Shown here: positions 3,001-60,940 of the stretch, one piece after another
Layout of the letters: every line of letters begins with the position of its first letter
Numbering within the stretch: position 1 is the first letter of the stretch
Virus record (IMG/VR): IMGVR_UViG_3300045988_161046
Location: 32,001-96,000 of that record
Origin: a virus
Direction: 5' to 3' (one strand)
DNA length: 64,000 nucleotides
Position numbers and translations under genes: made by a program
Notes under the pieces: generated by a model
What the model was told of the DNA's origin: nothing
Seen by the model: the letters and a program-made list of their open reading frames with translations, nothing else
Database searches by the model: none

Positions 3001-3775
3001 CTTGCTGCATTGCCGGACGGAAAAAGCAGCCGCAGCTTCCCTGCGGGGCTATCACGTCTGTGGCGAAGCAGACGAACAGCGGATTCCAGGGCGTTCCGTA
3101 AATCACTTCACTTACCAGTTGCCCGTTTCTCACCACATTAGGCAGCGTTACCTGGTCCACGGCATAGATGCGGAAATCCTCGTTCAACATCTTGGTATTG
3201 AAGTCCTTTCCGAAGCCGTATTGCGGGATTCCCTTAACCGATGTGACTTCGCACCCCAGGGCTGCAAGCTCCTGGGGATTGAAATCTGTTTTTGGCATAA
3301 ATGAGAAAGTTTCTATCGTTTGTGGAGCGATTGTGCGATAATCCATCTTTGCAAAGAGCATCGGCCATTTGGCTCTCGTCTTCTCGTTGTCGCCATACAC
3401 CCTCACGATGAGGTCATGGCACAGACGCAGCAGACTGGCTCCGTGCATCGGCAGGTTGCGCATGGCGGCATAAAGCTCTAAGGCTCCATAGCCATACTTG
3501 CCGGTCTTGGTACACATCCAGCGCAGGGCACCATGCTCTGCCTTGGAATTGTCTTCCACCCCTACACCGTTATACATACCGCCTCGCTCATTATTGTAGA
3601 TAATGAGGTGAGGAGTCTGTTTTGCCTTGCCCTGCTCGCCATCGTCTGCCTCTTCCTTCTGGCAGAGCGGACAGAAACAGGCTGTCTGTCCCTCGATGCG
3701 CTGCTCATCGGCAGGTTTTACGAGGAATTGCATGTCGAGATTGGCAATCTGGTTCAATATAGGGTGAAATAACAT
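92..3775 (-). CDS. DNA primase/helicase fusion (zinc finger + TOPRIM-like N-half, P-loop SF3/D5-like C-half)
   Basis: 1227-aa ORF; 'CFCPLCQ...TPHLIIY' zinc-finger-like start; 'VIMIYPNDITSQ' TOPRIM-like patch; Walker A 'SGGSGKSM'. Confidence 0.55.
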   Translation of the reverse strand: MLFHPILNQIANLDMQFLVKPADEQRIEGQTACFCPLCQKEEADDGEQGKAKQTPHLIIYNNERGGMYNGVGVEDNSKAEHGALRWMCTKTGKYGYGALELYAAMRNLPMHGASLLRLCHDLIVRVYGDNEKTRAKWPMLFAKMDYRTIAPQTIETFSFMPKTDFNPQELAALGCEVTSVKGIPQYGFGKDFNTKMLNEDFRIYAVDQVTLPNVVRNGQLVSEVIYGTPWNPLFVCFATDVIAPQGSCGCFFRPAMQQDPIVFSTCEEHSVRKVSKWLMGDPVFVHAAENRTAENTAVYAAIKKYQPDEVYTEEKEIWVENETKDGEPKGTFHPEKKPIEVGDIKAQNIVFCRTPEDALSVYYAMQSLRKDKAGDKFFEKNSWYHVAFSIGRGYFWYIERGEWRQEKLDFSGVQYQKMKRFAERVIMIYPNDITSQRNCGAIATKFSDICYAMLPESFRVRYNQRWQWLYGCTPRSVRDYMLTYRMSDEDNFRFDHDIRLPLFSKLRGAKNTDPFDIEYPRDPRSGKQKPCTCKISPTKVWLFMTSHGYYRKIDPESNDLVGQFIHLDRCFVEYIDGKSIIQATKEKLLEFCEQSWRHNEQEQKLMSDCANLIDKNFSEKSAGGLQSIVIDFTEGYSENVEYFYFRNVALKITPEYITPISYDQCNFFIPATARKPYDFTMRHFDPPFIIKQSDEYTRRENEIAQKEAQKNEDGSPVFSIFEISQMKNDLREWGTVYRWDVDWRGKKDRELWPMLRILRGCSNVLWQEEMEADRSKHELSEEDKSIINAHFVNMVSGIGRVCYRDFSGTDSQSIPYLLEDQIEDEKQASGGSGKSMVVRVFVGSAVNVLNIDMKRFITTADARFSLGEIQHNPGMYRAIHWEDRPKSFPMDYFYVMATTGVTLECKGADIKTLSLKDSPLHIISSNFPYDGGVDSTAGRFPQIAFSNRFARENTLKRKMARSPGDILKGFNPDPEKLPDIARNQAIYITALAVQFMMRYHVVSKAPQLNLRRRNMISEITESCVRYFEFFFSREEVYGVPICADEMFNEFIRDWADASEGKSKEYSRATFKKKIHKYCESANIKCNPEHLFENVSDKQRNCFKMKAWVTQEYFVGREWENDNTIEPKFIRYIQTSKHVFFFYRPGKDTIPTDYKELKRIAKEFVENPDPLPYRDDEGHIVQLTTEEEERWNAYQKRKQGRFVAAQNAQNGSTAEATVEEIDKDTLPF

Positions 3776-4465
3776 ATCTTACAGTAAGAGTATTTATAGA
3801 GTTAAAAGAGAAGGGGAAGTCACCACTCTTTTCAGTTGATAGTTTATAGTTGATACTTTATAGGACCGGCCTATTAACTTTTAACTATCACTTATCAACT
3901 AAATGCGAAGGGTAGGCAAAACTTCAAGTGTTTACACCTTGCCGGCTTATATTCGGGGCGGGCGGTCGGAGCATTTGAAAATCTGTAGTACCCGTCCACT
4001 GAATATTCCTAACGCCAAGACGCGGCATAACGCTAATCACGTCTTTCCATAGCACCGGCAAAGATGCAGTGTACAGCGTAGTCGTGGAACATTGCTGCTT
4101 CCACTACCCTTGCATAAGAGCGTTTCCAGAATGCCTCCCCTATTCTCTTTATGTCAACGTTTCAAAGAAAGAAGAACTTTCGGGGCAATACCGCCAAAGT
4201 TCGAGGATGCCTTGTTACCGCATCGATAAGTATTCCCAGGCTTTTTAATCAGACTTTTTGCTTATCGTTCCGAGACTGCGGTGGAGGGTATCAACTTATC
4301 AGTGAAGCTTTGCAGCGTTCACTTATTACCCGTCCAGTTCTTCCTGTCATTTTAACCGATGGATCGGTTGTCTAACAAAATAAAAATCGGAAACGAAGTG
4401 TATATCGTACCAAAGTTTGCATGATGTCATGCAGAATATCTTTTATTTTTTCATATCTTTATGTT

Positions 4466-4882
4466 TTATAAATTCAGAAATGTTTCCAGGCGATAATGCC
4501 TTATCTTGCAGTTACAGATGGTTTCCATGCGGTGTACTATCATCTGCGAGAGACTTTCCATCGTGAGGAATTCGGTATCTAGACCGATAATCTGCACCTC
4601 CTGCCTCCAATAGATCTTGCCGTTCTTGCGGCGGCAACTGTGCGAAGGCGTAATAATCATATCTTCCACACTGCCCGTCATCATCCTGCAAAGATACTCA
4701 CAGGTATCTTTTAGCAAGGCAAAGGGCGCATAGAAGAGGAGAGTCGGAATATCATCCTTCAGTCCGCTCATCGTCTCGGTATAGGCGAAACGATGCAGCA
4801 TTCTGTATCGTGATAGGTTCCTATGCCTCTTCTGTATGCCATTCCGGTTAGGGATATAGGGCAAATCAAACAGTCTTGGCAT
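4466..4882 (-). CDS. hypothetical protein
   Basis: 138-aa ORF overlapping the upstream exonuclease gene's 3' end by 17 nt; no motif recognised. Confidence 0.4.
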   Translation of the reverse strand: MPRLFDLPYIPNRNGIQKRHRNLSRYRMLHRFAYTETMSGLKDDIPTLLFYAPFALLKDTCEYLCRMMTGSVEDMIITPSHSCRRKNGKIYWRQEVQIIGLDTEFLTMESLSQMIVHRMETICNCKIRHYRLETFLNL

Positions 4883-5579
4883 AGCCTTCTCTTATCTTTT
4901 TCATCATCTGCCAGGTGGAGTAGATACTTCGCTTGCAGTCGAAAATCGGGTCATGCGCCGCACTTTCATCCGTAATGTCCTTATAGTCCGTAGTCAGGGC
5001 ATTAGCCTTGTCTAGGTCAAAAGGTTCTTCGTTTGGCTCGGCTGAATCCCATACGATTCTCGCAAGTTCAAGATAGAACGTGCGATGATCTCTCAGTTGG
5101 GTATGCTTAATCTGGAACTTGATGCACAGCTTGTAGCAGATATATCTCAAGATCGCCACATCGAAGTCAGTACCCTGCGCCCAAAGGCAAAGTTCTTCAT
5201 CACCGAGCTTCTTTTTAATATAGGCTATCCATCCGAACAGGTCGTTCACGACCACATCTATTGGCTGGCAGGGTGCCTCGTCGCTGTCATTGCCGAGCAA
5301 GGCAGCTTTTGCATCATCGCTCTGTTTGCTCCACCAGTCTGCCGTCGATTGATCGAAGGTGAAGCCATTCAGGAACATGCTCCTCAGGTCAATGTGAGCA
5401 GAGAATGTAGAGTTTCTTAACACACCATCACCATTCTCAAAGAATGGTGATTCTTTACCGTAGCGCTTCCACGCCACCGCGCCGATACTCATCACGGCAG
5501 CGGTGGGCGAAAGCGAACAGGTTTCTAAATCAACAGTTACATCTATCATATATGTAGTTACGATTTCTTGGCTTAACAT
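4866..5579 (-). CDS. 3'-5' exonuclease, DnaQ/DEDDh superfamily
   Basis: Motifs in order: 'VDLET' (ExoI), 'GTDFDVAIL' (ExoII), 'HDPIFDCK' (ExoIII, H-x4-D). Confidence 0.6.
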   Translation of the reverse strand: MLSQEIVTTYMIDVTVDLETCSLSPTAAVMSIGAVAWKRYGKESPFFENGDGVLRNSTFSAHIDLRSMFLNGFTFDQSTADWWSKQSDDAKAALLGNDSDEAPCQPIDVVVNDLFGWIAYIKKKLGDEELCLWAQGTDFDVAILRYICYKLCIKFQIKHTQLRDHRTFYLELARIVWDSAEPNEEPFDLDKANALTTDYKDITDESAAHDPIFDCKRSIYSTWQMMKKIREGYAKTV

Positions 5580-31030: not shown

Positions 31031-32143
31031 CTATTTCCCAATAAACCAATTTACGTTCCAATTATTACCATCATATATTAATTCTGTTCTCTGGTTGTAT
31101 GCACCCGAAGTGAAGCTATTTCTAGAAACTCCGTACCAAGACATATTATTAAGTGATGATTTAATAACAAAGTTGTCACCAGCTTGTATAAACTTATAAT
31201 ATTGACCTCTCTGAGGTTTATCGGGGAGTGTTAGCGTTACGCCTCTTGTTACTATAATGAAGCAATCCATCTCAGATAATGTAATACTCTTATTGACTTT
31301 TCTTGTCACAGGACGTAATCCAGCATACATTCCTCTAGATGCGCATATTGCAAAGTTGCCTGATGGTTCATCGGAATAGCTACTTTGTTCCCTTGTTCCA
31401 CCTTCGGCATGCAATACTAAACATGCCTTAGAATCGTCTGGTCGGTACTCTCGGTCGTCTATCCTTATATCAGATATTAGATTACTAATACCATAAATTG
31501 GGGAGACACGCTTTGTAGTACCAATCCAGATAATTCTATCATTAGTTGTATGGTCAGTTGTGTGTGTGAAGAATAAACTATTCTCTGATAATTGCATTGG
31601 TTTGTGCGTGGTGTTATAACCATCGTCATATTCTAAGATTCCATTGTCTGTCAATGTGAATCTACCTATTCTTCCCATTAACGCATAGATTGCTCCATCT
31701 TGCGTCACATGGAATGGAGCATTTTTAGCATTATCCGCACCAACAAAGAGAGGAGCATAGGTAGTATCATCTACCTTGCAAGCTTCCATATTCTCGGTAT
31801 TTCCGAAATATCCCACATTGGCAGTTCCGTCCTCGGACTTCGCCCAAAGATGCTTAACCTCGATTTTATCTGCATCAATCAGGTTAGCATTGAGCTTACC
31901 ATTACTGAACATGGCAATGGTGTTATTGTTCTCATCAATAACGCTCGTCTGCTTCGCCTTGATAGCAACACTATCCGAACCGATTACAATACCAGCCGCC
32001 GTCATGTCCTTAACCAACTGAGTAAAGTTCCCGATAGGCGTACTCTCATTCGTTGCAGTAATGAGACGAACAATCTCCGTCTCACTCGCTGTTTTGGGCT
32101 TTCTGCCTACCTTTACAACACCTTGCGCACTATGTCCAGCCAT
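31031..32143 (-). CDS. tail-fibre-like protein
   Basis: 370 aa; 'NLIDADKIEVKHLWAK' fibre-shaft-like segment; located in the fibre module. Confidence 0.4.
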   Translation of the reverse strand: MAGHSAQGVVKVGRKPKTASETEIVRLITATNESTPIGNFTQLVKDMTAAGIVIGSDSVAIKAKQTSVIDENNNTIAMFSNGKLNANLIDADKIEVKHLWAKSEDGTANVGYFGNTENMEACKVDDTTYAPLFVGADNAKNAPFHVTQDGAIYALMGRIGRFTLTDNGILEYDDGYNTTHKPMQLSENSLFFTHTTDHTTNDRIIWIGTTKRVSPIYGISNLISDIRIDDREYRPDDSKACLVLHAEGGTREQSSYSDEPSGNFAICASRGMYAGLRPVTRKVNKSITLSEMDCFIIVTRGVTLTLPDKPQRGQYYKFIQAGDNFVIKSSLNNMSWYGVSRNSFTSGAYNQRTELIYDGNNWNVNWFIGK

Positions 32144-32161
32144 AGTATACCTCCTTTCTTT

Positions 32162-32581
32162 TTATACGTTAGCGTTAATTATCTCAACTGCCTTTCTAGC
32201 AATTTCCTTTGCGTGGATGCGCCACTCTTGCATCGCCTTATACTCTGCAATATACTCCTCACGCTTGCTATCATCCAAGGAAATTGATGCCACAGCACTA
32301 TTCTGAGCCAACTCGAAGTTAAGACGAATGGCATCCATCTTGTCTGAAGGGTACTTGTCTTCGATGATTGCAGACGCGATTGCATCATAGCTACGGATGC
32401 CGCCACGAAGCTCGATGTATTCGGCACTATACGCATTATCACCAACAACTACATTACCTTCACTATCATTCTTAGGCTCGGACTTCACGTAGTCGAAAGT
32501 AACACGCATCCAATCACTACTAACCTTTACTGAGACGTTCTCCTTTGGAGCTTCGCCAACCAAATCAAAATATGTTTTCAT
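32162..32581 (-). CDS. hypothetical acidic protein downstream of the DGR RT
   Basis: 139-aa ORF. Confidence 0.45.
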   Translation of the reverse strand: MKTYFDLVGEAPKENVSVKVSSDWMRVTFDYVKSEPKNDSEGNVVVGDNAYSAEYIELRGGIRSYDAIASAIIEDKYPSDKMDAIRLNFELAQNSAVASISLDDSKREEYIAEYKAMQEWRIHAKEIARKAVEIINANV

Positions 32582-32615
32582 ATCTGTCTTTATTTTTAAT
32601 GTTTAACAATCCTGT

Positions 32616-34064
32616 TTAATCCAAGTCGTAAGTAAAGTTACCACCACGAAGGAAGACTATAGATGCGAAAGTTTCCAATGGGTAGATGTTTTGTTGCCTT
32701 CCCAAATTAAGTTTTTCAATGATGCGCTTGCTTGTAGTACAGAACTTATATTTCTCACTATTAGCATCATCCTTGAAAGAAAACATCACCCAACAGCGAC
32801 CACTTTTATTTGCTATCGTCACATTATCCTCGAAATCGTGAATGATTATCGGTACATGTGTCTGTGCCAACTCTGCAAGTTTCTTCTCCAGTACGTCAAA
32901 GACACGCTTACCATCCTTATCCACATTTACTTGACTTGTAGTAATTCCATGTTCTTTAAAACTCATGTTATTTTCCTTTAATATCGTATTCCATAAATTA
33001 TTACATTTTCCCCATTTAGCTATTCCCCAATAGGAAGCATACAACTCTTTCCTTCTTTTGCGGCTCTTTACTCCATGAAAGCTTTTCACCATGTTGAGTT
33101 TGGTACGCTTACGCATTCTCATGTTTTTACGGGAAAATACATATCCCACAAAGTCGATGCTGCGACCATCTATCAGCTTACTCTCATCCATCAATGGTGC
33201 AACATAGCTACTACATTTCACTACCATTCCAATACGACTAAGAATATCATCAAAGCACCTCAATAACTCATTGGCTTCTTCCTTGGTTCTAACCATCGCA
33301 ACTATATCATCGCAATGCCTATGATAAAACTCTATGTGCAATTTCTGCTTGGCATATCTGTCAACTTCCGAAAGTACGAGATTGCCGATTATCTGCTTGA
33401 TGCAGTTACCTAGTGTTATACCTCGTTCTTCACCTACATAAGCAAGTGGAGTATTCGAAGTCCAAGGACACGTTGCACGTTTCTTGGCATCTTCTTCCAG
33501 CAACAAAGGCTCAATATCCGATTCATAGTCTAAAACCGTCTTCTCTATTAGTTCTAAGAATAGGTCATCATCAATGTACCTTCTCAACGCATTCATTACA
33601 ACCTTGTGAGGCAAAGACGGATAGAACTTCCTTATATCTAGCTTTACTACGTAATGAAGATTAGGATGCTTACGCAATAGCTGTTGGGTTCTCAAAGCTG
33701 CGAATACTTGACCCTTACCCTTTCTTCCTGCCGAAGAATCGTATATCAGAATCTTCTCAACTATAGGCTCGAACACTACCTTAATGGCATGATAGAGGAT
33801 ATTCCAAGGCATGAAGTGTTGTGGATATATCACTCTGTCCTTATCCTTTGCGTGAAGAACCCTGGGACGATAAGGCTTCGTAGGATATTCTCGCAAAATT
33901 ATCATACTTTGAATCTTTTCGAGATTTGCAGTCTCATTTTTAAGAAACTGCTTCACGTACCAAGCTTCCTTATCTTTTACCACACTTGTTGCATCATTCG
34001 CACCTTCCAATAAGGTTTCCATCTTTATCACCTTGTCAATAAGATGCCTTGCTTTCTTTGTCAT
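32616..34064 (-). CDS. DGR-type reverse transcriptase
   Basis: 'LDIRKFYPSLPH', 'GITLGNCIKQIIGNL' (DGR-like [LI]GxxxSQ-type motif), 'HRHCDDIVAM' (xxDD), 'DFVGYVF'; adjacent TR. Confidence 0.85.
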   Translation of the reverse strand: MTKKARHLIDKVIKMETLLEGANDATSVVKDKEAWYVKQFLKNETANLEKIQSMIILREYPTKPYRPRVLHAKDKDRVIYPQHFMPWNILYHAIKVVFEPIVEKILIYDSSAGRKGKGQVFAALRTQQLLRKHPNLHYVVKLDIRKFYPSLPHKVVMNALRRYIDDDLFLELIEKTVLDYESDIEPLLLEEDAKKRATCPWTSNTPLAYVGEERGITLGNCIKQIIGNLVLSEVDRYAKQKLHIEFYHRHCDDIVAMVRTKEEANELLRCFDDILSRIGMVVKCSSYVAPLMDESKLIDGRSIDFVGYVFSRKNMRMRKRTKLNMVKSFHGVKSRKRRKELYASYWGIAKWGKCNNLWNTILKENNMSFKEHGITTSQVNVDKDGKRVFDVLEKKLAELAQTHVPIIIHDFEDNVTIANKSGRCWVMFSFKDDANSEKYKFCTTSKRIIEKLNLGRQQNIYPLETFASIVFLRGGNFTYDLD

Positions 34065-34270
34065 TATTTCAAAGAGTCGCTTATTTTTCCTCGCCCTAGG
34101 CTTTTCTCCATACTGGCTGCATGGCTACATCACCTAGCTTGTCTGTAATTTAATACTGACCTTTCTGCGTATATGTTTTGGCAGTCCACTAAAGACCGCC
34201 AAGGTTCACGAAACTCAATCGAAAATGGTTTCTCTCTATAGGAGAGACTACTTTTCTGCCTTGATTGATT

Positions 34271-34389
34271 TTATAAGTTAGACGAGCCCCGTAATTCGTC
34301 CTGCGGTTATCGAAAGCGTTATTCGAATTGACGCAACCGAGACCGCTGTGCGACTGGTTGTTGGAATTGCCACCCCAGATACAGAGCTT
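34271..34389 (-). repeat. DGR template repeat (TR)
   Basis: 119 bp matching 34584-34702 except at 18 coding-strand adenines; contains 8 AAY codons in the VR frame. Confidence 0.9.
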
Positions 34390-34536
34390 ATGTTTCGTTC
34401 CACCTTTTATGCGAGTTGTTTGCGAATTTATGTGAATGTTAATAATTTAATTATTTAACTCTTATGCTCGCTCGCTACGGCTCGCTCGGTTTTTAATTGC
34501 CTTGCTTGCCATAGCTTGCTTGCGTTTTTTGGTGCT

Positions 34537-34555
34537 GCTGACCCTAAAGGTCAGC
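34537..34555 (-). promoter_or_regulatory. hairpin just 3' of VR (7-bp stem, 5-nt loop) overlapping the target stop codon
   Basis: GCTGACC-CTAAA-GGTCAGC read directly; placed like DGR homing-associated hairpins. Confidence 0.5.
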
Positions 34556-35845
34556 TCCGTTTACGATTTTCGGTAATGCGCCATAATAAGCGAGACGAGC
34601 CCCGCAATCCGCCCTGCGGATATCGAAAGCGTTACTCGAATGGACGCAACCGAGACCGCCGCGCGACCGGGCGCCGGAATAGCCACCCCAGATACAGAGC
34701 TGCCCAACAGGCTTATTATTGCCGTCATAGCACCAATACTTATCTCCCCAACGGCTACCAGAGCCACCTCCACCTTGTGAAGGAATGAGGTCGAAATGTT
34801 CACCAATCGCCATCTTTGCTATCCACATTTCTTGACTTCCCAATCGTTGAATAGTACGATATGTTCCTGTAGGATGGCTAATAAGTTCCGCATCGGTCGG
34901 CAGTCGATTACCTTCGTATATAAACGCCTCTAGTCCAGTCTGTCCTTCATTGTTTACATTACCGAAATAGATACCTTGTCTCATTTCCCATTGCCAGTTG
35001 TACCAGTCCTCGACACCAAAGAGAGATACACGACAAGCATTCGGTGCATTAGTTAACGTGATAGGTATCTTACCGCAACTATCTCCAAGTGATATTGTTG
35101 CACCCGTCTTCAACTGAGAAACTCCACCCCAGTTGTCTGCCCATTCACCTTCACCGCCAACACCATTTCCGATATTAGCTTGTACGTTAGGATTGCCATA
35201 CTCGGATAGGTTTGTCATCATTCCCCATTGACCATGCTCGTAGCAAGTGATACCATAATCCTTACCATTGTTTCTAGCGAGATTCCAGAAATCACGGATA
35301 AATCTGCTTCCTGATACATCAATGTTCTTACCGCTACGAGAATGAAGAGCATTACCAGCAACACTACCCATGTATGCACCAATCATCGGATGCTCGATAT
35401 AATAGCCACCAATAGGATATTGTGACTGCCATACAACATTGCATCCCATTGATGCATCATACTTAACGACAAAATAAAGGCGTGGAGCTACCACGAATAC
35501 ATCACCTTTCGATTCATCAACGGTCGTACCATCCGCAAAAATCGAACTATTGATAGATGATAGTTTTGCCATCTTCTCACCTCCAGTCTTCACAAGGTAG
35601 CGACCGATAGCTCTCTTGTACTCTTCCCATAAGGAGAGATTACCTATTCTTCCCCAATTTTGACTATCTTCGTCTTGTTTGATAGGTGTACCCCACGCTA
35701 TCAGAGCCAAATCAAGTTGATTAGTCTGAATAGAGTTAGCCAAATCAGACAGCTTGATACGTCTGAGCGAGCCACCAACCTCTATCAATAAAGTATCACC
35801 CTTAACCATTGATGATACCAATGCTACTGTTGCAAGATTTTTCAT
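34544..35845 (-). CDS. DGR target protein (C-type-lectin-fold-like variable C-terminus), receptor-binding candidate
   Basis: VR covers the last ~40 codons: 'QLCIWGGYSGARSRGGLGCVHSSNAFDIRRADCGARLAYY'. Confidence 0.8.
   Translation of the reverse strand: MKNLATVALVSSMVKGDTLLIEVGGSLRRIKLSDLANSIQTNQLDLALIAWGTPIKQDEDSQNWGRIGNLSLWEEYKRAIGRYLVKTGGEKMAKLSSINSSIFADGTTVDESKGDVFVVAPRLYFVVKYDASMGCNVVWQSQYPIGGYYIEHPMIGAYMGSVAGNALHSRSGKNIDVSGSRFIRDFWNLARNNGKDYGITCYEHGQWGMMTNLSEYGNPNVQANIGNGVGGEGEWADNWGGVSQLKTGATISLGDSCGKIPITLTNAPNACRVSLFGVEDWYNWQWEMRQGIYFGNVNNEGQTGLEAFIYEGNRLPTDAELISHPTGTYRTIQRLGSQEMWIAKMAIGEHFDLIPSQGGGGSGSRWGDKYWCYDGNNKPVGQLCIWGGYSGARSRGGLGCVHSSNAFDIRRADCGARLAYYGALPKIVNGADL
34584..34702 (-). 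repeat. DGR variable repeat (VR)
   Basis: See TR; 11 T>C, 4 T>G and 3 T>A differences on the plus strand relative to TR. Confidence 0.9.
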
Positions 35846-35870
35846 ATTTTGCTATTTTTATGTTACTAAA

Positions 35871-37076
35871 TCAGTTACCAATTAAGTATTCTCCGTTCTC
35901 ATCAACGAGGGGTTCAGAACCATCAGAGAAGAAGTCGAAGCTCGGCTTGTATTCAGCATCACATCTTATCTCCAACTCATCATCAGCAGTTTCGCCTAAA
36001 CCAGTATCAGAGATATTGAAGATTGCCGTATCGCCCTCTTGCCATTGCCTTGTAGTTGTAGCACCGCCATTTTCGGCAATAGTGCTCCAATTGAGTTTGA
36101 GGACATTAGCAGGGCAGTCCACGATGTTACCCTCTGAATTGACTAGAGCAATCTGTTGTCGGTTGTCAACTCCAGGAGATATGTCTACGTTCTGTCCTGC
36201 CGATACGCTATACTTCGGATAGGTTCGGGAGACAGATATTTGCTTGTTGCATACTTCCGTATCGCCCACAAATGCCCTAATTACGTATAATGCCGAATTA
36301 ATCAGTCTTAAATCAAGTGCGATGTAACTTGTGTTGATTGCTGCCACCTCATTCATTCCTACGCTTATCTGTGTCATCGAAGAACCGCTCATCTTGTAGA
36401 GCTTGATAGTGTAGCCAGAAGTAATACTCTTTGCGCCCTTGTAGATGTGGAGAGGAATATTTCTCAGATAAGCCTTCTCATCAATGCAAGCGTTCCTAAC
36501 AGCATCGGATGCAGCTATCATTCCATGAGCTACCTTGTAGTCGTACAGAAGCAATCTATCTAACATCGGATTGTAGATGATAGTCTCATCATCATCAATA
36601 GCCATTGAATAGGCATCATCGCTCTTTGCAACCGTGTTCAGAACTACCTCATCTGTAAGGATAGGAACATTGATTTTGGTTCGATAGTCAACGATGTCAG
36701 CCTTGAACCTCAGAGCAAATCGTTCTGTTACTGCTACATTACGGAATATGGTAAGGTCTCCACGTGTAGCACCATCCTGATTAATTGAGTAATCCGATGC
36801 AGCCCATACATTGCTTATATCCTCGCCGTTGACAAGCCACACCATGTTGGCAAGTACCGCATTTGCTTGCTGATACTTCCACGTTCCATCGCTTGCATAA
36901 GCTGTGATGTCTGGGTGTAACACACAAGGTGTGTTGGCTCGGTTCGGCTCGAAGCTACTATTAACCACGTTCCACACTTGCGTTGTAGGAGAGCCGCCCG
37001 ACACACATACGATTGATTTTGCCGTATTGAGAGGTGCAAAAGACCTTCTTATTCTTACTGCGTTGTTTGTTGCCAT
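35871..37076 (-). CDS. virion (tail/fibre module) protein
   Basis: 401 aa, beta-rich, N/S/T-rich; assigned by position only. Confidence 0.4.
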   Translation of the reverse strand: MATNNAVRIRRSFAPLNTAKSIVCVSGGSPTTQVWNVVNSSFEPNRANTPCVLHPDITAYASDGTWKYQQANAVLANMVWLVNGEDISNVWAASDYSINQDGATRGDLTIFRNVAVTERFALRFKADIVDYRTKINVPILTDEVVLNTVAKSDDAYSMAIDDDETIIYNPMLDRLLLYDYKVAHGMIAASDAVRNACIDEKAYLRNIPLHIYKGAKSITSGYTIKLYKMSGSSMTQISVGMNEVAAINTSYIALDLRLINSALYVIRAFVGDTEVCNKQISVSRTYPKYSVSAGQNVDISPGVDNRQQIALVNSEGNIVDCPANVLKLNWSTIAENGGATTTRQWQEGDTAIFNISDTGLGETADDELEIRCDAEYKPSFDFFSDGSEPLVDENGEYLIGN

Positions 37077-52020: not shown

Positions 52021-52162
52021 ACTCTAATAATATTTTCGGTTTATCAACATCATGCCCTTTGCCCCCCCCACAAAGGCATAGGGCAATACCTTTCGGATGC
52101 ACGATAATGCCATTTTGGGATGGACTATAAGAACCGAGGATAATAGGACGATTACAAATCAT
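52013..52162 (-). pseudogene. C5-MTase TRD mini-ORF a (contains G8 tract)
   Basis: MICNRPIILGSYSPSQNGIIVHPKGIALCLCGGGKGHDVDKPKILLEYE*; ATGA overlap with the upstream ORF. Confidence 0.45.
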
Positions 52163-53460
52163 TTCTTCTCCAAAAACTGATGATACAAATTATCTAACTT
52201 TGGATTTTGGAACTTGCCGTTCTCTTTCCAGTCATTGAACAGCGGCATGATGATGTCCTCGTGAGCAGAAGAAATCTCCTCCTGCAGTTCTTTTAGAGTG
52301 CAATTCCAAAGATGCGCCTCTTCTATATAAAGAGTGAGGATGGCTTTCAATGCCATTGCATTCTCGTGGCTCGGCTCTATCTCGAACTGATGGAAGACGC
52401 AGGTGTCTTTATCGTTTGCCTGGAGGAATTTGCTGACGGCTTCATCTTTCAGGAAGAACCTTGTATCTACTTCTTCCTGCAACACATCTTCCAGCTTTCT
52501 CTTCAGCGGAATAGGGTCGGGGAACTGGTAATCGAAGGCTACATCTTTTCTCATCGAGAGGCAGAATACTCGGTCGCGGTTCTGCGGAACACCATAGTCT
52601 TTGGCATTGAGTCTTGCCCATCGGCTTACGTAACCGAGAGATGAGAGCTTATCAAGCCACTTCTGAAAATCGGGCATAAACTTCTCACTTACCAGGGCTG
52701 CCACATTCTCCTGGAGTAGATACTTCGGTCGCAATACTTCCACGGCATCGGCTACTCGCCACAATAATGCCGAGCGGGTATCGGAACCTTCCTTCAAACC
52801 CATCTGCTTGCCGGCTTGCGATATATCCTGACAAGGTGAGGAATAGGTAAAGAGGTCGATTTCTTGCCCCCCCACATTACGCTTTACCTGTTGCCAGTCG
52901 ATTTTGGTTATATCGCCCAAGGCTTTGTCGGCAAACTGCGGAAAGATGAGATTGTGCATCTGACAGGCATACTTATCTATATCGCTCCAGCCTACACACG
53001 TCCAGCGGAAATCAGGGTGCTGCTGGGCGAGGACATCGGCTGCCATCAACTGCGAGTCGTAACCGGAGAAGGTGGTGAGGATAAGTTTCTCGCCATGGTT
53101 CTTATCTACCGGATAGGTAGGGAGTTGGTCTTCTGGGAAGAAATCGGCAAAAAATGAAGTCTGCGCCTCATGCTTCGGTTCTTTCGGGTACCAGAGTTGC
53201 TGATAGATGGCTGCGAGCACATCTACCACGATGGAGTTACCTGCCTGCTTGTATTGCTGACTGGCTGATACTGCCATATCTTCTGCCTTTCCCTTGCTCT
53301 TATAGCCGGCTACTCGCTCGGCTGCCTGGGCGTTGGTACTTTGCATCGTGCGGATCACATCATCACGCACACCCATCAGTCGAAAACACTCGAAGGGTGT
53401 CAGCTTTCGGATGGCATAAGACTTAATGGTCTTATCCTTGAAATTGAACTTTGTTATCAT
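52159..53460 (-). CDS. cytosine-C5 DNA methyltransferase, circularly permuted motif order (IX-X then I-IV-VI-VIII)
   Basis: 'IRKLTPFECFRLMGV' (IX), 'YKQAGNSIVVDVL' (X), 'LTTFSGYDSQ' (I), 'SSPCQDIS' (IV), 'LLQENVAAL' (VI), 'VPQNRDRVF' (VIII). Confidence 0.8.
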   Translation of the reverse strand: MITKFNFKDKTIKSYAIRKLTPFECFRLMGVRDDVIRTMQSTNAQAAERVAGYKSKGKAEDMAVSASQQYKQAGNSIVVDVLAAIYQQLWYPKEPKHEAQTSFFADFFPEDQLPTYPVDKNHGEKLILTTFSGYDSQLMAADVLAQQHPDFRWTCVGWSDIDKYACQMHNLIFPQFADKALGDITKIDWQQVKRNVGGQEIDLFTYSSPCQDISQAGKQMGLKEGSDTRSALLWRVADAVEVLRPKYLLQENVAALVSEKFMPDFQKWLDKLSSLGYVSRWARLNAKDYGVPQNRDRVFCLSMRKDVAFDYQFPDPIPLKRKLEDVLQEEVDTRFFLKDEAVSKFLQANDKDTCVFHQFEIEPSHENAMALKAILTLYIEEAHLWNCTLKELQEEISSAHEDIIMPLFNDWKENGKFQNPKLDNLYHQFLEKK

Positions 53461-55153: not shown

Positions 55154-55708
55154 TTAAAATATGATTTTCTTGCCGCCATTGGCGATGAGGGAGCCGTATT
55201 TGATGGCTTCTAATCTGCGGAGCCAGCCTTTCTCAAATACCTTCTGACTAGGGTGCTTGGCGATGATGCCGGAGATGTATTGCTTGCGGCGTACCTTGAT
55301 GCGGGCGAAGAACTGACTAGGGTTCTGGGCGTTGAGGGCAGCGAGGGTCTGCTTGCCTACGATGCCATCGGCTGTTACGCCCAGCATGGCTTGCACGAGG
55401 GTGATGCCTGGAGTACCGCTAGACCATACCCAATCTACCAGAATGTTGGCAATGCTCTGGTCTTTGATGCCATCGGCTTTCCATCGGTTCCAATAACAGC
55501 GGCGAAGGATGGCAGTGAAATCGGCTTTGGTGATAAGCTTTACATCCTTTGCATCGATGCGGCCATCATGGTTCTTGTCATAACCTTGGGTTTGCCAGGT
55601 TTTCAGCGTTACGCCCATGTTGGTAGGGCCGCCCTTGTCGTTGGGGTGGTTTACGTAACCTCCTTCAAAGGAGAGAATGAAATCTGCAAGAGGTTGAATC
55701 TTTGCCAT
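55154..55708 (-). CDS. endolysin, GH108 N-acetylmuramidase with peptidoglycan-binding C-domain
   Basis: 'FEGGYVNHPNDKGGPTNMGVT' GH108 signature; 'GVTADGIVGKQTLAAL' PG-binding-like. Confidence 0.8.
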   Translation of the reverse strand: MAKIQPLADFILSFEGGYVNHPNDKGGPTNMGVTLKTWQTQGYDKNHDGRIDAKDVKLITKADFTAILRRCYWNRWKADGIKDQSIANILVDWVWSSGTPGITLVQAMLGVTADGIVGKQTLAALNAQNPSQFFARIKVRRKQYISGIIAKHPSQKVFEKGWLRRLEAIKYGSLIANGGKKIIF

Positions 55709-59341: not shown

Positions 59342-60940
59342 CTAGAGGAGACCATTTTCTCTCTTGTACTCCTCGATAGCTTTCTTTGAACCTACTGGGT
59401 CGGCTGGATTCCAGGTTGGGTAGCCTGTCTTTGCGGTTTCTACCTTTGCGCCCTCACCGTTGTTCTGAGGTGCGGCACCCTGCGCTGGCTCCTCACCTGG
59501 GTTCTCGTTCAGCTCGGCAATCTGAGCGTCCTTGTCGGCGATGGTCTGCTGGGCAGTCGCGAGTGAAGCCTGGGCAGTCTTCAACTCCTCATCTGCCTTT
59601 GCCTTCTCCTCATCGGCCTTAGCCTTTGCCTCTTTCAGGTTCTTGATTTCCTCGTCCTTCTGGGCGATGGTTTCAGCGAGTGCGTCGTGCTTTGCCTGAA
59701 GGTCAGCAAGATTCTGCTCTGCTGTGGTGGCTTTCTGCTTGGCATCAGCCACAGCCTGCTCCTGCGATGCGAGATGAGCTTCGAGGGTATCGAGCAACGG
59801 GGCATTCATGAATGCGCCTTCCTCCTTTACCTCAATCTGCTGACCATCCTGCATACCGCAAGCGGCATTGATCTTTGAATAATTTGCCATATTGATTGAT
59901 TTTTGTGAAATAGTATGTTGATGATTTTCTTGTACAATAGATGCAGATGCCTGCTCCGGCTCGTTCTCTTCCGGTTCAGGCTTTTGGATAGAAGCCTCTC
60001 GATTGATAGGCTCGGCTGTGCCGTTGTAGAGAGCGAAGCAACGCTGAACGCACCCCATAAAGGTAGACTGGTCGTCCATAAGGATTCCCTTTACGTCTTC
60101 AGCATTGAATACCTTACCTTTCAGGTGAACATCCTCGATAGCGTTAGGACAGGCTTTCTTCACATCGGCTCTGAACTCCACGCCCAACTCGGAAAGCTCT
60201 TTGATAAGCTCCTTGTTGTCATTCTTGTTGGCGATGTCACGGTAAGCCTTATTCTTGTCGAAAGACTCTGGATCGTACTCCTCGTGATAAGTCTCATCGG
60301 TATATTTATCCTTTGAGCCATTAGCCAAAGTATAGAAGGCAGCCATCACGCCGATGCAACCAACCTGGTCTTTCGGATTCAAGTAATATCGCTCATCGCA
60401 AAGAGAAGCGAGATACATACCTGCACTGGCACACATTCCATCTACCAGGGCGATGACCTTCTGACCCTTGGAGTGGGCATAGTCGATAGCAAGTGCATAA
60501 TCGTTTTTAGCCCAAGCCGAACCGCCAGGAGTATTAATGATAAAAAGATGACCTCGGCAAAGCGGATGGTCAGCTGCACGCATCATCATATCGCGATGGT
60601 CGATAGAACCATAAGAGCAATATCCACCATTTCGAGTGATAGGACCATCTACGGTGAGAACCGAAACAAACGGGAAGTTCTGTGCCCGCTCATCCTCCTC
60701 CGGATAGTCGAGCTGATAGTTAGCTCTCACCTGCTTGCCATCCTCGGAAATCTGATATTCCTCCGGATAGTAGGTGTTGCCTTCAGCATCCTCCGCAGTG
60801 ACGAATCCACAAGTCCTTTCCGGTTTGGTAAACTCTGTGTGAGTATTTAGGTTCTGCTCAATCGATTTACGAATGCCATGCACGAAATCGGGGTTCACCA
60901 TCCACTTCTTCTCGGTCAGAATTTCATAAAGACCTTTCAT
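59342..60940 (-). CDS. prohead protease (S49/ClpP-like) fused to a coiled-coil scaffold
   Basis: 'FIINTPGGSAWAKND...ALVDGMCASAGMYLAS...VGCIG'; C-terminal 'ADLQAKHDALAETIAQKDEEIKNLKEAKAKADEEKAKADEELK'. Confidence 0.7.
   Translation of the reverse strand: MKGLYEILTEKKWMVNPDFVHGIRKSIEQNLNTHTEFTKPERTCGFVTAEDAEGNTYYPEEYQISEDGKQVRANYQLDYPEEDERAQNFPFVSVLTVDGPITRNGGYCSYGSIDHRDMMMRAADHPLCRGHLFIINTPGGSAWAKNDYALAIDYAHSKGQKVIALVDGMCASAGMYLASLCDERYYLNPKDQVGCIGVMAAFYTLANGSKDKYTDETYHEEYDPESFDKNKAYRDIANKNDNKELIKELSELGVEFRADVKKACPNAIEDVHLKGKVFNAEDVKGILMDDQSTFMGCVQRCFALYNGTAEPINREASIQKPEPEENEPEQASASIVQENHQHTISQKSINMANYSKINAACGMQDGQQIEVKEEGAFMNAPLLDTLEAHLASQEQAVADAKQKATTAEQNLADLQAKHDALAETIAQKDEEIKNLKEAKAKADEEKAKADEELKTAQASLATAQQTIADKDAQIAELNENPGEEPAQGAAPQNNGEGAKVETAKTGYPTWNPADPVGSKKAIEEYKRENGLL

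Follow-up and report, generated by a model that had tools for sequence, protein, structure and literature searches.

The window examined here, 64,000 nucleotides spanning positions 32,001 to 96,000 of the IMG/VR virus record IMGVR_UViG_3300045988_161046, contains a genuine diversity-generating retroelement (DGR) on its minus strand. Between window positions 32616 and 35845 lie, in minus-strand order, the open reading frame (ORF) of the target protein, the variable repeat (VR), a hairpin, the template repeat (TR), a spacer and the reverse transcriptase (RT) gene; this order and these coordinates had been put forward in an earlier sequence-only reading of the window and were all reproduced. The identification as a DGR is supported by the database matches of the RT, the restriction of TR/VR differences to adenines, the predicted fold of the target, the diversity of the VR in the population and the tail-module context, and the DGR is probably active. 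Its layout, which lacks a gene for the accessory protein Avd, is a further example of one already known; what the earlier reading missed is a module fused to the RT, given which the cassette is probably not accessory-free. The explanation that we favor as a whole, with a probability of roughly 80%, is that this is a functional DGR of an uncultivated human-gut phage that alters 16 codons close to the C-terminal end of a receptor-binding tail protein and that has a tethered module in place of Avd.

Adenine-restricted variation in a tail protein

A repeat search detected a single long direct repeat, 34273-34388 versus 34586-34701 (116 nt, 86% identity, spacing 313), which corresponds to the TR and VR. 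When the two were aligned base by base over 119 nt of the minus strand, they differed at 18 positions, every one an adenine in the TR (11 A>G, 4 A>C and 3 A>T). Of the 31 adenines in the TR, 18 are thus changed, whereas its 88 non-adenine bases are all conserved (hypergeometric P = 2.2e-13). The sequence-only reading had counted the same 18 adenine-only mismatches, and its count was exact, as were the peptides that it read from the TR and VR, with eight AAY codons in the former and seven of the eight Asn codons changed in the latter. It had also taken the VR to be the end of the target. The VR is indeed in frame with the target ORF and near its C-terminus, spanning residues 382-420, but it is not terminal, because 13 residues come after it.

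For a population comparison we used 12 genomes from IMG/VR and ENA with RTs that are 97-99% identical and with a VR that could be placed in register. In this comparison between genomes, all 12 VRs are distinct and the TR is near-invariant, as it is across 13 related genomes; the TR of the window is identical to the TR of relatives whose VRs all differ. Adenines of the TR account for 222 of the 228 TR-VR differences across the 12 genomes, and the variable columns comprise 24 of the 31 adenine positions and 6 of the 88 non-adenine positions. Every one of the 24 adenines at TR positions 10-98 varies among genomes. A constant TR paired with adenine-variable VRs is the mark that mutagenic retrohoming leaves in a population. 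Each of these 24 adenines, which make up the mutable part, occupies codon position 1 or 2, from which follows a capacity, across 16 codons, of about 2.8e14 variants at the DNA level and 1.3e14 at the protein level.

One relative, L014 (IMGVR_UViG_3300045988_075205; loci compared in this work carry labels in L or P), has a TR (3676-3794) that departs from the otherwise invariant sequence at nine adenine sites. Several of these substitutions, including a "CG" at positions 111-112 of the type described below for the 3' end of VRs, are also present in the L014 VR. It looks as if VR sequence or mutagenized cDNA overwrote part of this TR, eroding 9 of its 31 template adenines.

The target gene is located among tail genes, behind another tail-protein ORF, and its product matches the PHROG family phrog_5302, annotated as "tail protein" (E = 4e-23). 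By sequence the target matched nothing in Pfam or the PDB. Its AlphaFold2 (AF2) model, with a mean predicted local distance difference test (pLDDT) score of 90.3, is closest in fold, among PDB entries, to 5vf4 (TaqVP, E = 1.5e-8) and 1yu0 (Mtd, E = 2e-3), both of them variable proteins of DGRs, and next to FGE/EgtB proteins. All of these belong to the C-type-lectin-like fold class, which the sequence-only reading had expected of the target C-terminus. Global template modeling (TM) scores are low (0.25-0.45), so the fold match covers only part of the target.

The reverse transcriptase and its C-terminal module

The RT matches Pfam RVT_1 and the PHROG 1423 RT family (E = 1e-61), and its best PDB sequence match is the Bordetella DGR RT, bRT (8ub7, E = 6e-17). 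The AF2 model of the RT (pLDDT 92.8) likewise has chain 8ub7_A as its best fold match (E = 7e-18, TM-score 0.89 on target length), with group II intron, G2L4, retron and DRT RTs ranking below it. By these database matches, rather than by a reference tree, the enzyme is of the DGR type and not of the group II intron or retron type. Residues R74 and I181 of bRT promote adenine mutagenesis (PMC7826257); their counterparts here are R77, which is invariant, and L218, a position occupied by I, L or V in the family. Two motifs that had been singled out as oddities, LGNCIKQ and HCDD, are both present, and they fared differently. The HCDD box is a signature of the close family of this RT, with H in 37 of 38 members and C in 38 of 38, and the 81 more typical DGR RTs in our comparison set have Y[A/C]DD. 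The DGR fingers motif is [I/V/L]GxxxSQ (PMC7826257), of which LGNCIKQ retains the L, G and Q and replaces S by K, and this lysine is private to the genome. Among the 38 family RTs the position is occupied by S (19), G (12), N (3), A (2), K (1) and C (1), and in the typical DGR RTs by S in 81 of 81; given its variability across the family, the serine is probably not strictly required. The family also has a conserved fingers insertion of ~35 aa (residues ~178-213; window 33420-33530, minus strand; DYESDIEPLLLEEDAKKRATCPW...), modeled with high confidence as a helix plus loop, that is absent from bRT and from the typical DGR RTs.

Several RT annotations in related records deserve mention. The 609-aa "RT" gene call of P0011 runs through the TR into the RT, so that its N-terminus reads the TR-encoded peptide, and another match to the RT model, BFVD entry A0A8S5L8F2 (1061 aa, named "tail collar fiber protein"), may likewise join a target to an RT; gene-call artifacts of the P0011 kind can hide DGR cassettes. 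The RT of LoVEphage (MW660583) is annotated as three consecutive ORFs (L095 2881-4424), and the RT reading frame of L015 is interrupted (4001-5445). These broken RTs represent either decayed DGRs or assembly errors.

The bRT is 328 aa long, and its alignment to the window RT stops near residue 360. Beyond this point the AF2 model has a low-confidence linker (residues ~361-380) and then a confident, separate α/β domain consisting mainly of β strands with two helices (order b-b-a-b-b-b-a-b-b-b). The 482-aa RT had previously been taken as one unit; judging from its relatives, it ends in a ~110-aa domain that is the fused version of a small protein associated with DGRs. In sister cassettes (P0033-P0037; L003, L004) the RT ends at 366-373 aa, and in L003 and L004 an overlapping 115-aa ORF opens with MSFKEHGI, the sequence with which the module begins in the window. 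The stand-alone 115-aa ORF of L003 is 44% identical to the tail of the window RT (E = 2e-27).

A hidden Markov model (HMM) of the module, iterated over the ORFs of 85 related viral DGR loci, found it in 75. It is fused to the RT in 28 of these loci, and in 23 it forms an ORF of ~115 aa upstream of the RT; in those with both repeats mapped, this ORF lies between VR and TR, the slot of Avd in classical cassettes. Most of the other module-bearing viral loci have an ORF that overlaps the RT stop codon or lies just past it. Related cellular loci from GTDB gave a similar proportion, with the module in 70 of 80 (52 after the RT, 9 before it, 8 fused and 1 unclassified), mostly in chromosomal DGRs of Bacteroidota. 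A profile search of 1.84 billion representative proteins placed 938 clusters at 50% identity in the module family, nearly all of ~100 aa, with source names that are all "hypothetical" except for one evidently erroneous TatD label. Stand-alone homologues match phrog_19665, a family of unknown function, at about E 1e-29 to 1e-40. The fused domain of the window matches it weakly (E = 0.0017) and is tied to the stand-alone homologues through the L003 match and the iterated HMM. Stand-alone members are basic (isoelectric point (pI) 8.8 ± 1.2), as is Avd, and fused copies are nearer neutral.

No family was listed for the module in Pfam even at the loosest setting (E up to 10), and its matches to PDB sequences were at chance level. 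Two candidate identities were rejected. Against Avd itself, hhalign gave a probability of 0.3% with bAvd (the Bordetella protein), and the module is α/β rather than a four-helix bundle and has no Pfam match. Against MutS_I, the Pfam family was not listed at E up to 10, in a search in which weak matches are largely filtered, and hhalign gave 0.14% with a manually entered E. coli MutS N-terminus as template. The order of the module core, b-b-b-a-b-b over residues 406-481 of the model, would be compatible with a nucleic-acid binder of the OB-like kind.

The module has repeatedly been joined to and separated from the RT, is strictly linked to it and can take the slot of Avd, and together these observations argue for a physical and functional association of the two. 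It is a plausible accessory factor, and we infer a putative role as the RNA- or cDNA-binding cofactor of this clade, doing the job that Avd does in Bordetella. On the broader proposition, that residues 374-482 belong to an undescribed, widespread accessory family (phrog_19665) that replaces Avd in a large Bacteroidota/gut-phage DGR clade and is interchangeably an RT fusion, a gene behind the RT or a gene in the slot of Avd, we are evenly divided. Wu et al. 2018 remarked that ~20% of DGR RTs are extended at the C-terminus, by as much as 150 aa, without an explanation, and that three of these extensions weakly resemble MutS_I; beyond that remark, a search with partial coverage of the literature found no description of the module family, which is no proof of novelty.

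The GTDB relatives L106-L183 have one or two putative variable proteins of ~125-160 aa directly upstream of TR-RT, with a common C-terminus "...GSGFSFS...VGSRLCFKS.ELA.YAG.QF" and ORFs that end within ~650 nt of the RT; the ~100-aa module ORF comes after the RT in these loci.

The absence of Avd was surveyed at several levels. None of the 38 small ORFs in the window matched PF22296, PF05635 or TIGR02436 in Pfam and NCBIfam searches, in which bAvd as a positive control scored E = 7e-36 on PF22296. Around related viral cassettes, Pfam searches of 69 representative small flanking ORFs (21 + 48) found no Avd, and jackhmmer and phmmer searches of all ORFs in the first 89 related loci found no bAvd homologue even at E = 50. 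In the 80 cellular loci, 63 ORFs of 90-165 aa terminate shortly before the RT; by inspection, 61 of them are small variable proteins with a target-like motif, and no Avd-like ORF stands out among the 63. As the sequence-only reading stated, the gap between VR and TR, at 194 nt, is too short to hold an Avd gene, and the search of related genomes that it proposed likewise gave no Avd near the sampled viral cassettes. The gap carries a 16-codon ORF, as that reading had it, which is presumably a chance ORF. Its view of the lack of Avd as unusual did not stand, because target-TR-RT cassettes without Avd are already published, among them lineage 3 of Wu et al. 2018 and crAssphage LMMB. In that survey avd accompanied 74% of DGRs, an accessory-free TR-RT architecture accounted for 29%, lineage 3 had no avd, and HRDC, MSL and CH1 were further accessory classes; how DGRs function without Avd was raised as an open question (Wu et al. 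2018).

RNA elements and surrounding genes

Four TR/VR differences are constant in every VR paired with the standard TR: A>C at position 1, AA>CG at positions 111-112 and A>T at position 118. Position 111 is a synonymous third position of a Leu codon and yet is constant in all VRs, which puts the 3' limit of the stretch that the cDNA replaces at some point from position 98 to position 111. By analogy with BPP-1, on which this assignment is modeled, GGGGCTCGTCTCGCTTATTA in the VR and GGGGCTCGTCTAACTTATAA in the TR would be the initiation of mutagenic homing site (IMH) and its TR variant (IMH*). The coordinates of these and the other features are collected in Table 1.

Table 1. Features of the DGR cassette and its downstream ORF in window coordinates.
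Feature	Position	Strand	Basis or remarks
Target gene, 433-aa tail protein	34544-35845	-	ORF; VR near C-terminus
VR	34584-34702	-	Mutable part 34605-34693; 3' end 34584-34604 (CGGGGCTCGTCTCGCTTATTA), putative IMH
Hairpin 3' of VR	34537-34555	-	7-bp stem GCTGACC/GGTCAGC; target TAG stop codon in loop
TR	34271-34389	-	Mutable part 34292-34380; 3' end 34271-34291 (..CGTCTAACTTATAA), putative IMH*
TR-RT spacer, structured non-coding RNA segment	34065-34270	-	Alignment and covariation
Spacer helix H1	34198-34202/34178-34182	-	RNAalifold
Spacer helix H2	34155-34160/34141-34146	-	RNAalifold
Spacer helix H3	34132-34137/34096-34101	-	RNAalifold
RT core, residues 1-365 of the 482-aa ORF 32616-34064	32970-34064	-	RVT_1, PHROG, fold
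RT C-terminal module, residues 374-482	32619-32945	-	Starts at internal Met, MSFKEHGI
Acidic 139-aa ORF directly after RT	32162-32581	-	Conserved position; pI 4.8

The 7-bp hairpin over the target stop codon, already seen in the sequence-only reading, was confirmed, and its stem has compensatory changes in L017, L003 and L096. No T-run follows the stem, and the hairpin is therefore not an intrinsic terminator. The TR-RT spacer, estimated earlier at ~200 nt, measures 206 nt. When 13 spacers of the family were aligned and folded with RNAalifold, three helices emerged in which 11 of 16 pairs have compensatory changes; 91.7% of cells are paired, versus 33-43% in slid-partner controls, and the covariation score was matched by none of 500 shuffles. 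Conserved single-stranded motifs lie between the helices (an A-rich CARAAAAYAWA, GCRGAAAGG, GGTGNNGTAG and GGGCRA...AAATAAGC). No Rfam family corresponds to the spacer, a scan of 32000-36500 having given only a chance snoRNA match. The positional counterpart of this spacer in the Bordetella DGR RNA is the Sp segment, which reportedly, from the work of Handa et al., contains the priming adenosine; by analogy, cDNA synthesis may be primed from the spacer here.

In the mechanism that we propose, the TR and the structured spacer would be transcribed as one RNA, and the RT would copy the TR into cDNA while misincorporating opposite template adenines, as the pattern of substitutions suggests. The cDNA would then replace the VR between a 5' homology boundary and the IMH, two boundaries that are visible in the repeats, and the IMH* variant would protect the TR. 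With Avd absent, the tethered ~110-aa α/β module of the RT would take its place, as a member of a family of ~100-aa basic proteins that adjoin or are fused to the RT in most DGRs of the Bacteroidota/gut-phage clade.

The 139-aa ORF that follows the RT is 49% identical to the ORF following the RT and module in L003, and it has homologues after the RT in L017-L022, L026 and LoVEphage; L096-L103 have an ORF of 123-137 aa in the same post-RT position, likened to it by size and place. A profile of the family found it only in phage loci with the same tail module, plus one weak match. It has no similarity to Pfam, PDB, bAvd or DUF4376 sequences, and its candidacy as Avd or as a DUF4376 protein was rejected after neither BLASTP nor hhalign nor a profile search of the PDB gave any support. 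It could be a tail-fiber chaperone, a virion protein split from the fiber gene by the DGR or a second accessory factor.

Elsewhere the window encodes a GH108 muramidase with a PG_binding_3 domain (55154-55708, minus strand), a DNA methyltransferase (52159-53460, minus strand) and a head maturation protease (59342-60940, minus strand). A small ORF with matches to models of acyl carrier proteins in Pfam (PP-binding, E = 8e-6) and NCBIfam (ACP, E = 3e-11) is an unusual gene to find in a phage. Among 50,697 deposited phage records we found no close relative save one human-fecal fragment, an unannotated 18-kb GenBank entry that covers 28% of the query; related contigs of 48-110 kb originate from human gut viromes. 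GTDB genomes contained no close relative, the only family-level match being one metagenome-assembled genome (MAG) of Prevotellaceae, and one homologue of the target is labeled uncultured Prevotella. The host probably belongs to the Prevotellaceae, an assignment that is weak because it rests on that one MAG and that one labeled homologue.

Alternatives and comparison with known systems

Some observations weigh against a functional DGR with a tethered cofactor. On the side of activity, it is read from differences between genomes and not from reads of this genome; about half of the wider family lacks the VR-proximal hairpin; and K223, the private lysine of the fingers motif, stands where the 11 closest relatives have N. 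On the side of the module, 10 of the 85 viral and 10 of the 80 cellular relatives have none, the fused domain of the window has a pI of 6.9, unlike the basic Avd, and the cofactor role is argued from linkage, the module having matched no family of known function and a Foldseek search with the full RT model having given RT matches only. The C-terminal RT extension of crAssphage LMMB, a cassette of the same layout, is not recognized by the module HMM. Finally, the search for Avd covered 64 kb of a genome of roughly 95-110 kb.

The lysine, unique among the 38 family RTs and the 11 close relatives, would fit a recently inactivated relic in which the VR differences record past activity and the cassette was disabled by the private S/N-to-K change or by loss of Avd. 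Such a relic is improbable in our estimation, as the 482-aa RT ORF is intact, the TR is the same as in relatives with VRs that all differ, the 18 of 18 differences on adenines leave no non-adenine drift, and S, G, N, A and C are all found at the substituted position in the family. The unsurveyed part of the genome bears on another alternative, a classical Avd supplied in trans from the phage genome beyond the window or from a DGR of the host, with the C-terminal domain irrelevant to cDNA synthesis. Judging by related IMG/VR contigs, which are as long as 110 kb, the window makes up only some 60-65% of the likely genome, and chromosomal DGRs of Bacteroides have been reported to encode Avd-like proteins; set against this, no Avd was found in the 38 small ORFs of the 64 kb or near the sampled related cassettes, the ORFs upstream of cellular RTs are by inspection small variable proteins in 61 of 63 cases, and remote avd genes for Avd-less DGRs were sought and not found by Wu et al. 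2018. We regard an Avd in trans as very unlikely.

A more substantial alternative accepts that the module is linked to the DGR and denies that it is an analogue of Avd: it could act in cDNA protection, in target-site recognition or integration, or in control of host repair, with cDNA synthesis proceeding without a protein cofactor. The lack of a sequence relation to Avd (the 0.3% of hhalign), the predicted α/β secondary structure in place of a four-helix bundle, the existence of additional DGR accessory classes (HRDC, MSL and CH1) and a b-b-b-a-b-b order that would suit an OB-like binder are all compatible with it. The module is, however, the sole conserved gene of these cassettes other than RT and target, it lies upstream of the RT in 23 viral loci, in the Avd slot where both repeats could be mapped, and its repeated fusion to the RT speaks for a physical tie to the polymerase; we consider a role in another step a serious but unlikely possibility. 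As for the 139-aa ORF as the true or a second accessory factor, its position directly after the RT or module in every family locus tested, including LoVEphage and loci with RTs only ~30% identical, and the similar-sized ORF in the same place in L096-L103 speak for it. We give this little credence: the protein is acidic, resembles neither bAvd nor any family, is limited to phage loci with the same tail module apart from the one weak match and may simply be the next tail or chaperone gene, and the hankyphage has an unrelated DUF4376 protein in that position. The reading that we prefer is thus the functional DGR with its module tethered to the RT.

To our knowledge, the mechanism by which DGRs synthesize cDNA is known from a single source, the Bordetella bRT-Avd-RNA complex. 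Avd is missing from a quarter to a third of DGRs, and this locus and its relatives offer a concrete candidate for a cofactor. If the candidate is true, the long-standing puzzle posed by "Avd-independent" DGRs and by the C-terminal RT extensions would be solved at least in part, and a single polypeptide uniting RT and cofactor could interest builders of DGR-based mutagenesis tools. The DGR itself is an expected case of tail-fiber hypermutation in a gut phage, with about 1e14 receptor-binding variants, and is useful for annotation.

Compared with the DGR of Bordetella phage BPP-1 (mtd-avd-TR-brt), the cassette has in common the RT fold (TM-score on target length, 0.89), the residues that promote mutagenesis, the adenine-specific TR-to-VR pattern, 3' differences of the IMH/IMH* type, a post-VR hairpin, a structured TR-RT spacer and an Mtd-like variable tail protein. 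BPP-1 has Avd between VR and TR, where the window has a gap without an Avd gene; the window RT is 154 aa longer than bRT, owing to the ~35-aa finger insertion and the C-terminal module, and has HCDD and LGxxxKQ in place of YMDD and IGxxxSQ. In layout, the basis of this comparison, the cassette resembles lineage 3, architecture A1, of Wu et al. 2018, for example crAssphage LMMB, which likewise has the order TG-VR(IMH)-TR(IMH*)-RT without avd. LMMB is also a human-gut phage with a tail-fiber target and a VR of the C-type-lectin class, and its RT is ~29% identical. MSL (MutS-like) and CH1 are, like the module, small proteins beside DGR RTs in Bacteroidota; CH1 is acidic and 160-169 aa long, whereas the module family is basic and ~100 aa, and MSL co-occurs with Avd, whereas the module occurs without it.

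The hankyphage (Bacteroides phage p00, BK010646) has the same order of target, VR, TR, spacer and RT, a diversified tail fiber and no bAvd-type gene. It differs in being a 43-kb Mu-like temperate phage of Bacteroides, in an RT that is only ~26% identical and has a core of typical length without the finger insertion of the window RT family, and in a post-RT ORF that encodes a DUF4376 protein not homologous to the 139-aa ORF. This post-RT ORF of the hankyphage has been published as "Avd" (L093 3785-4270, jmh43_hp PV107405; also in BK010646); in Pfam it matches DUF4376 (E = 1e-6) instead of the bAvd model, which makes that label doubtful. The hankyphage DGR is experimentally active, with adenine-targeted diversity in the tail-fiber VR in cultures of B. 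thetaiotaomicron (PMC12135933), and its 434-aa RT bears the same fused C-terminal module (HMM E = 2e-30). Since the module is both fused and split in nature and is present in this tractable phage, the question of the cofactor is directly testable.

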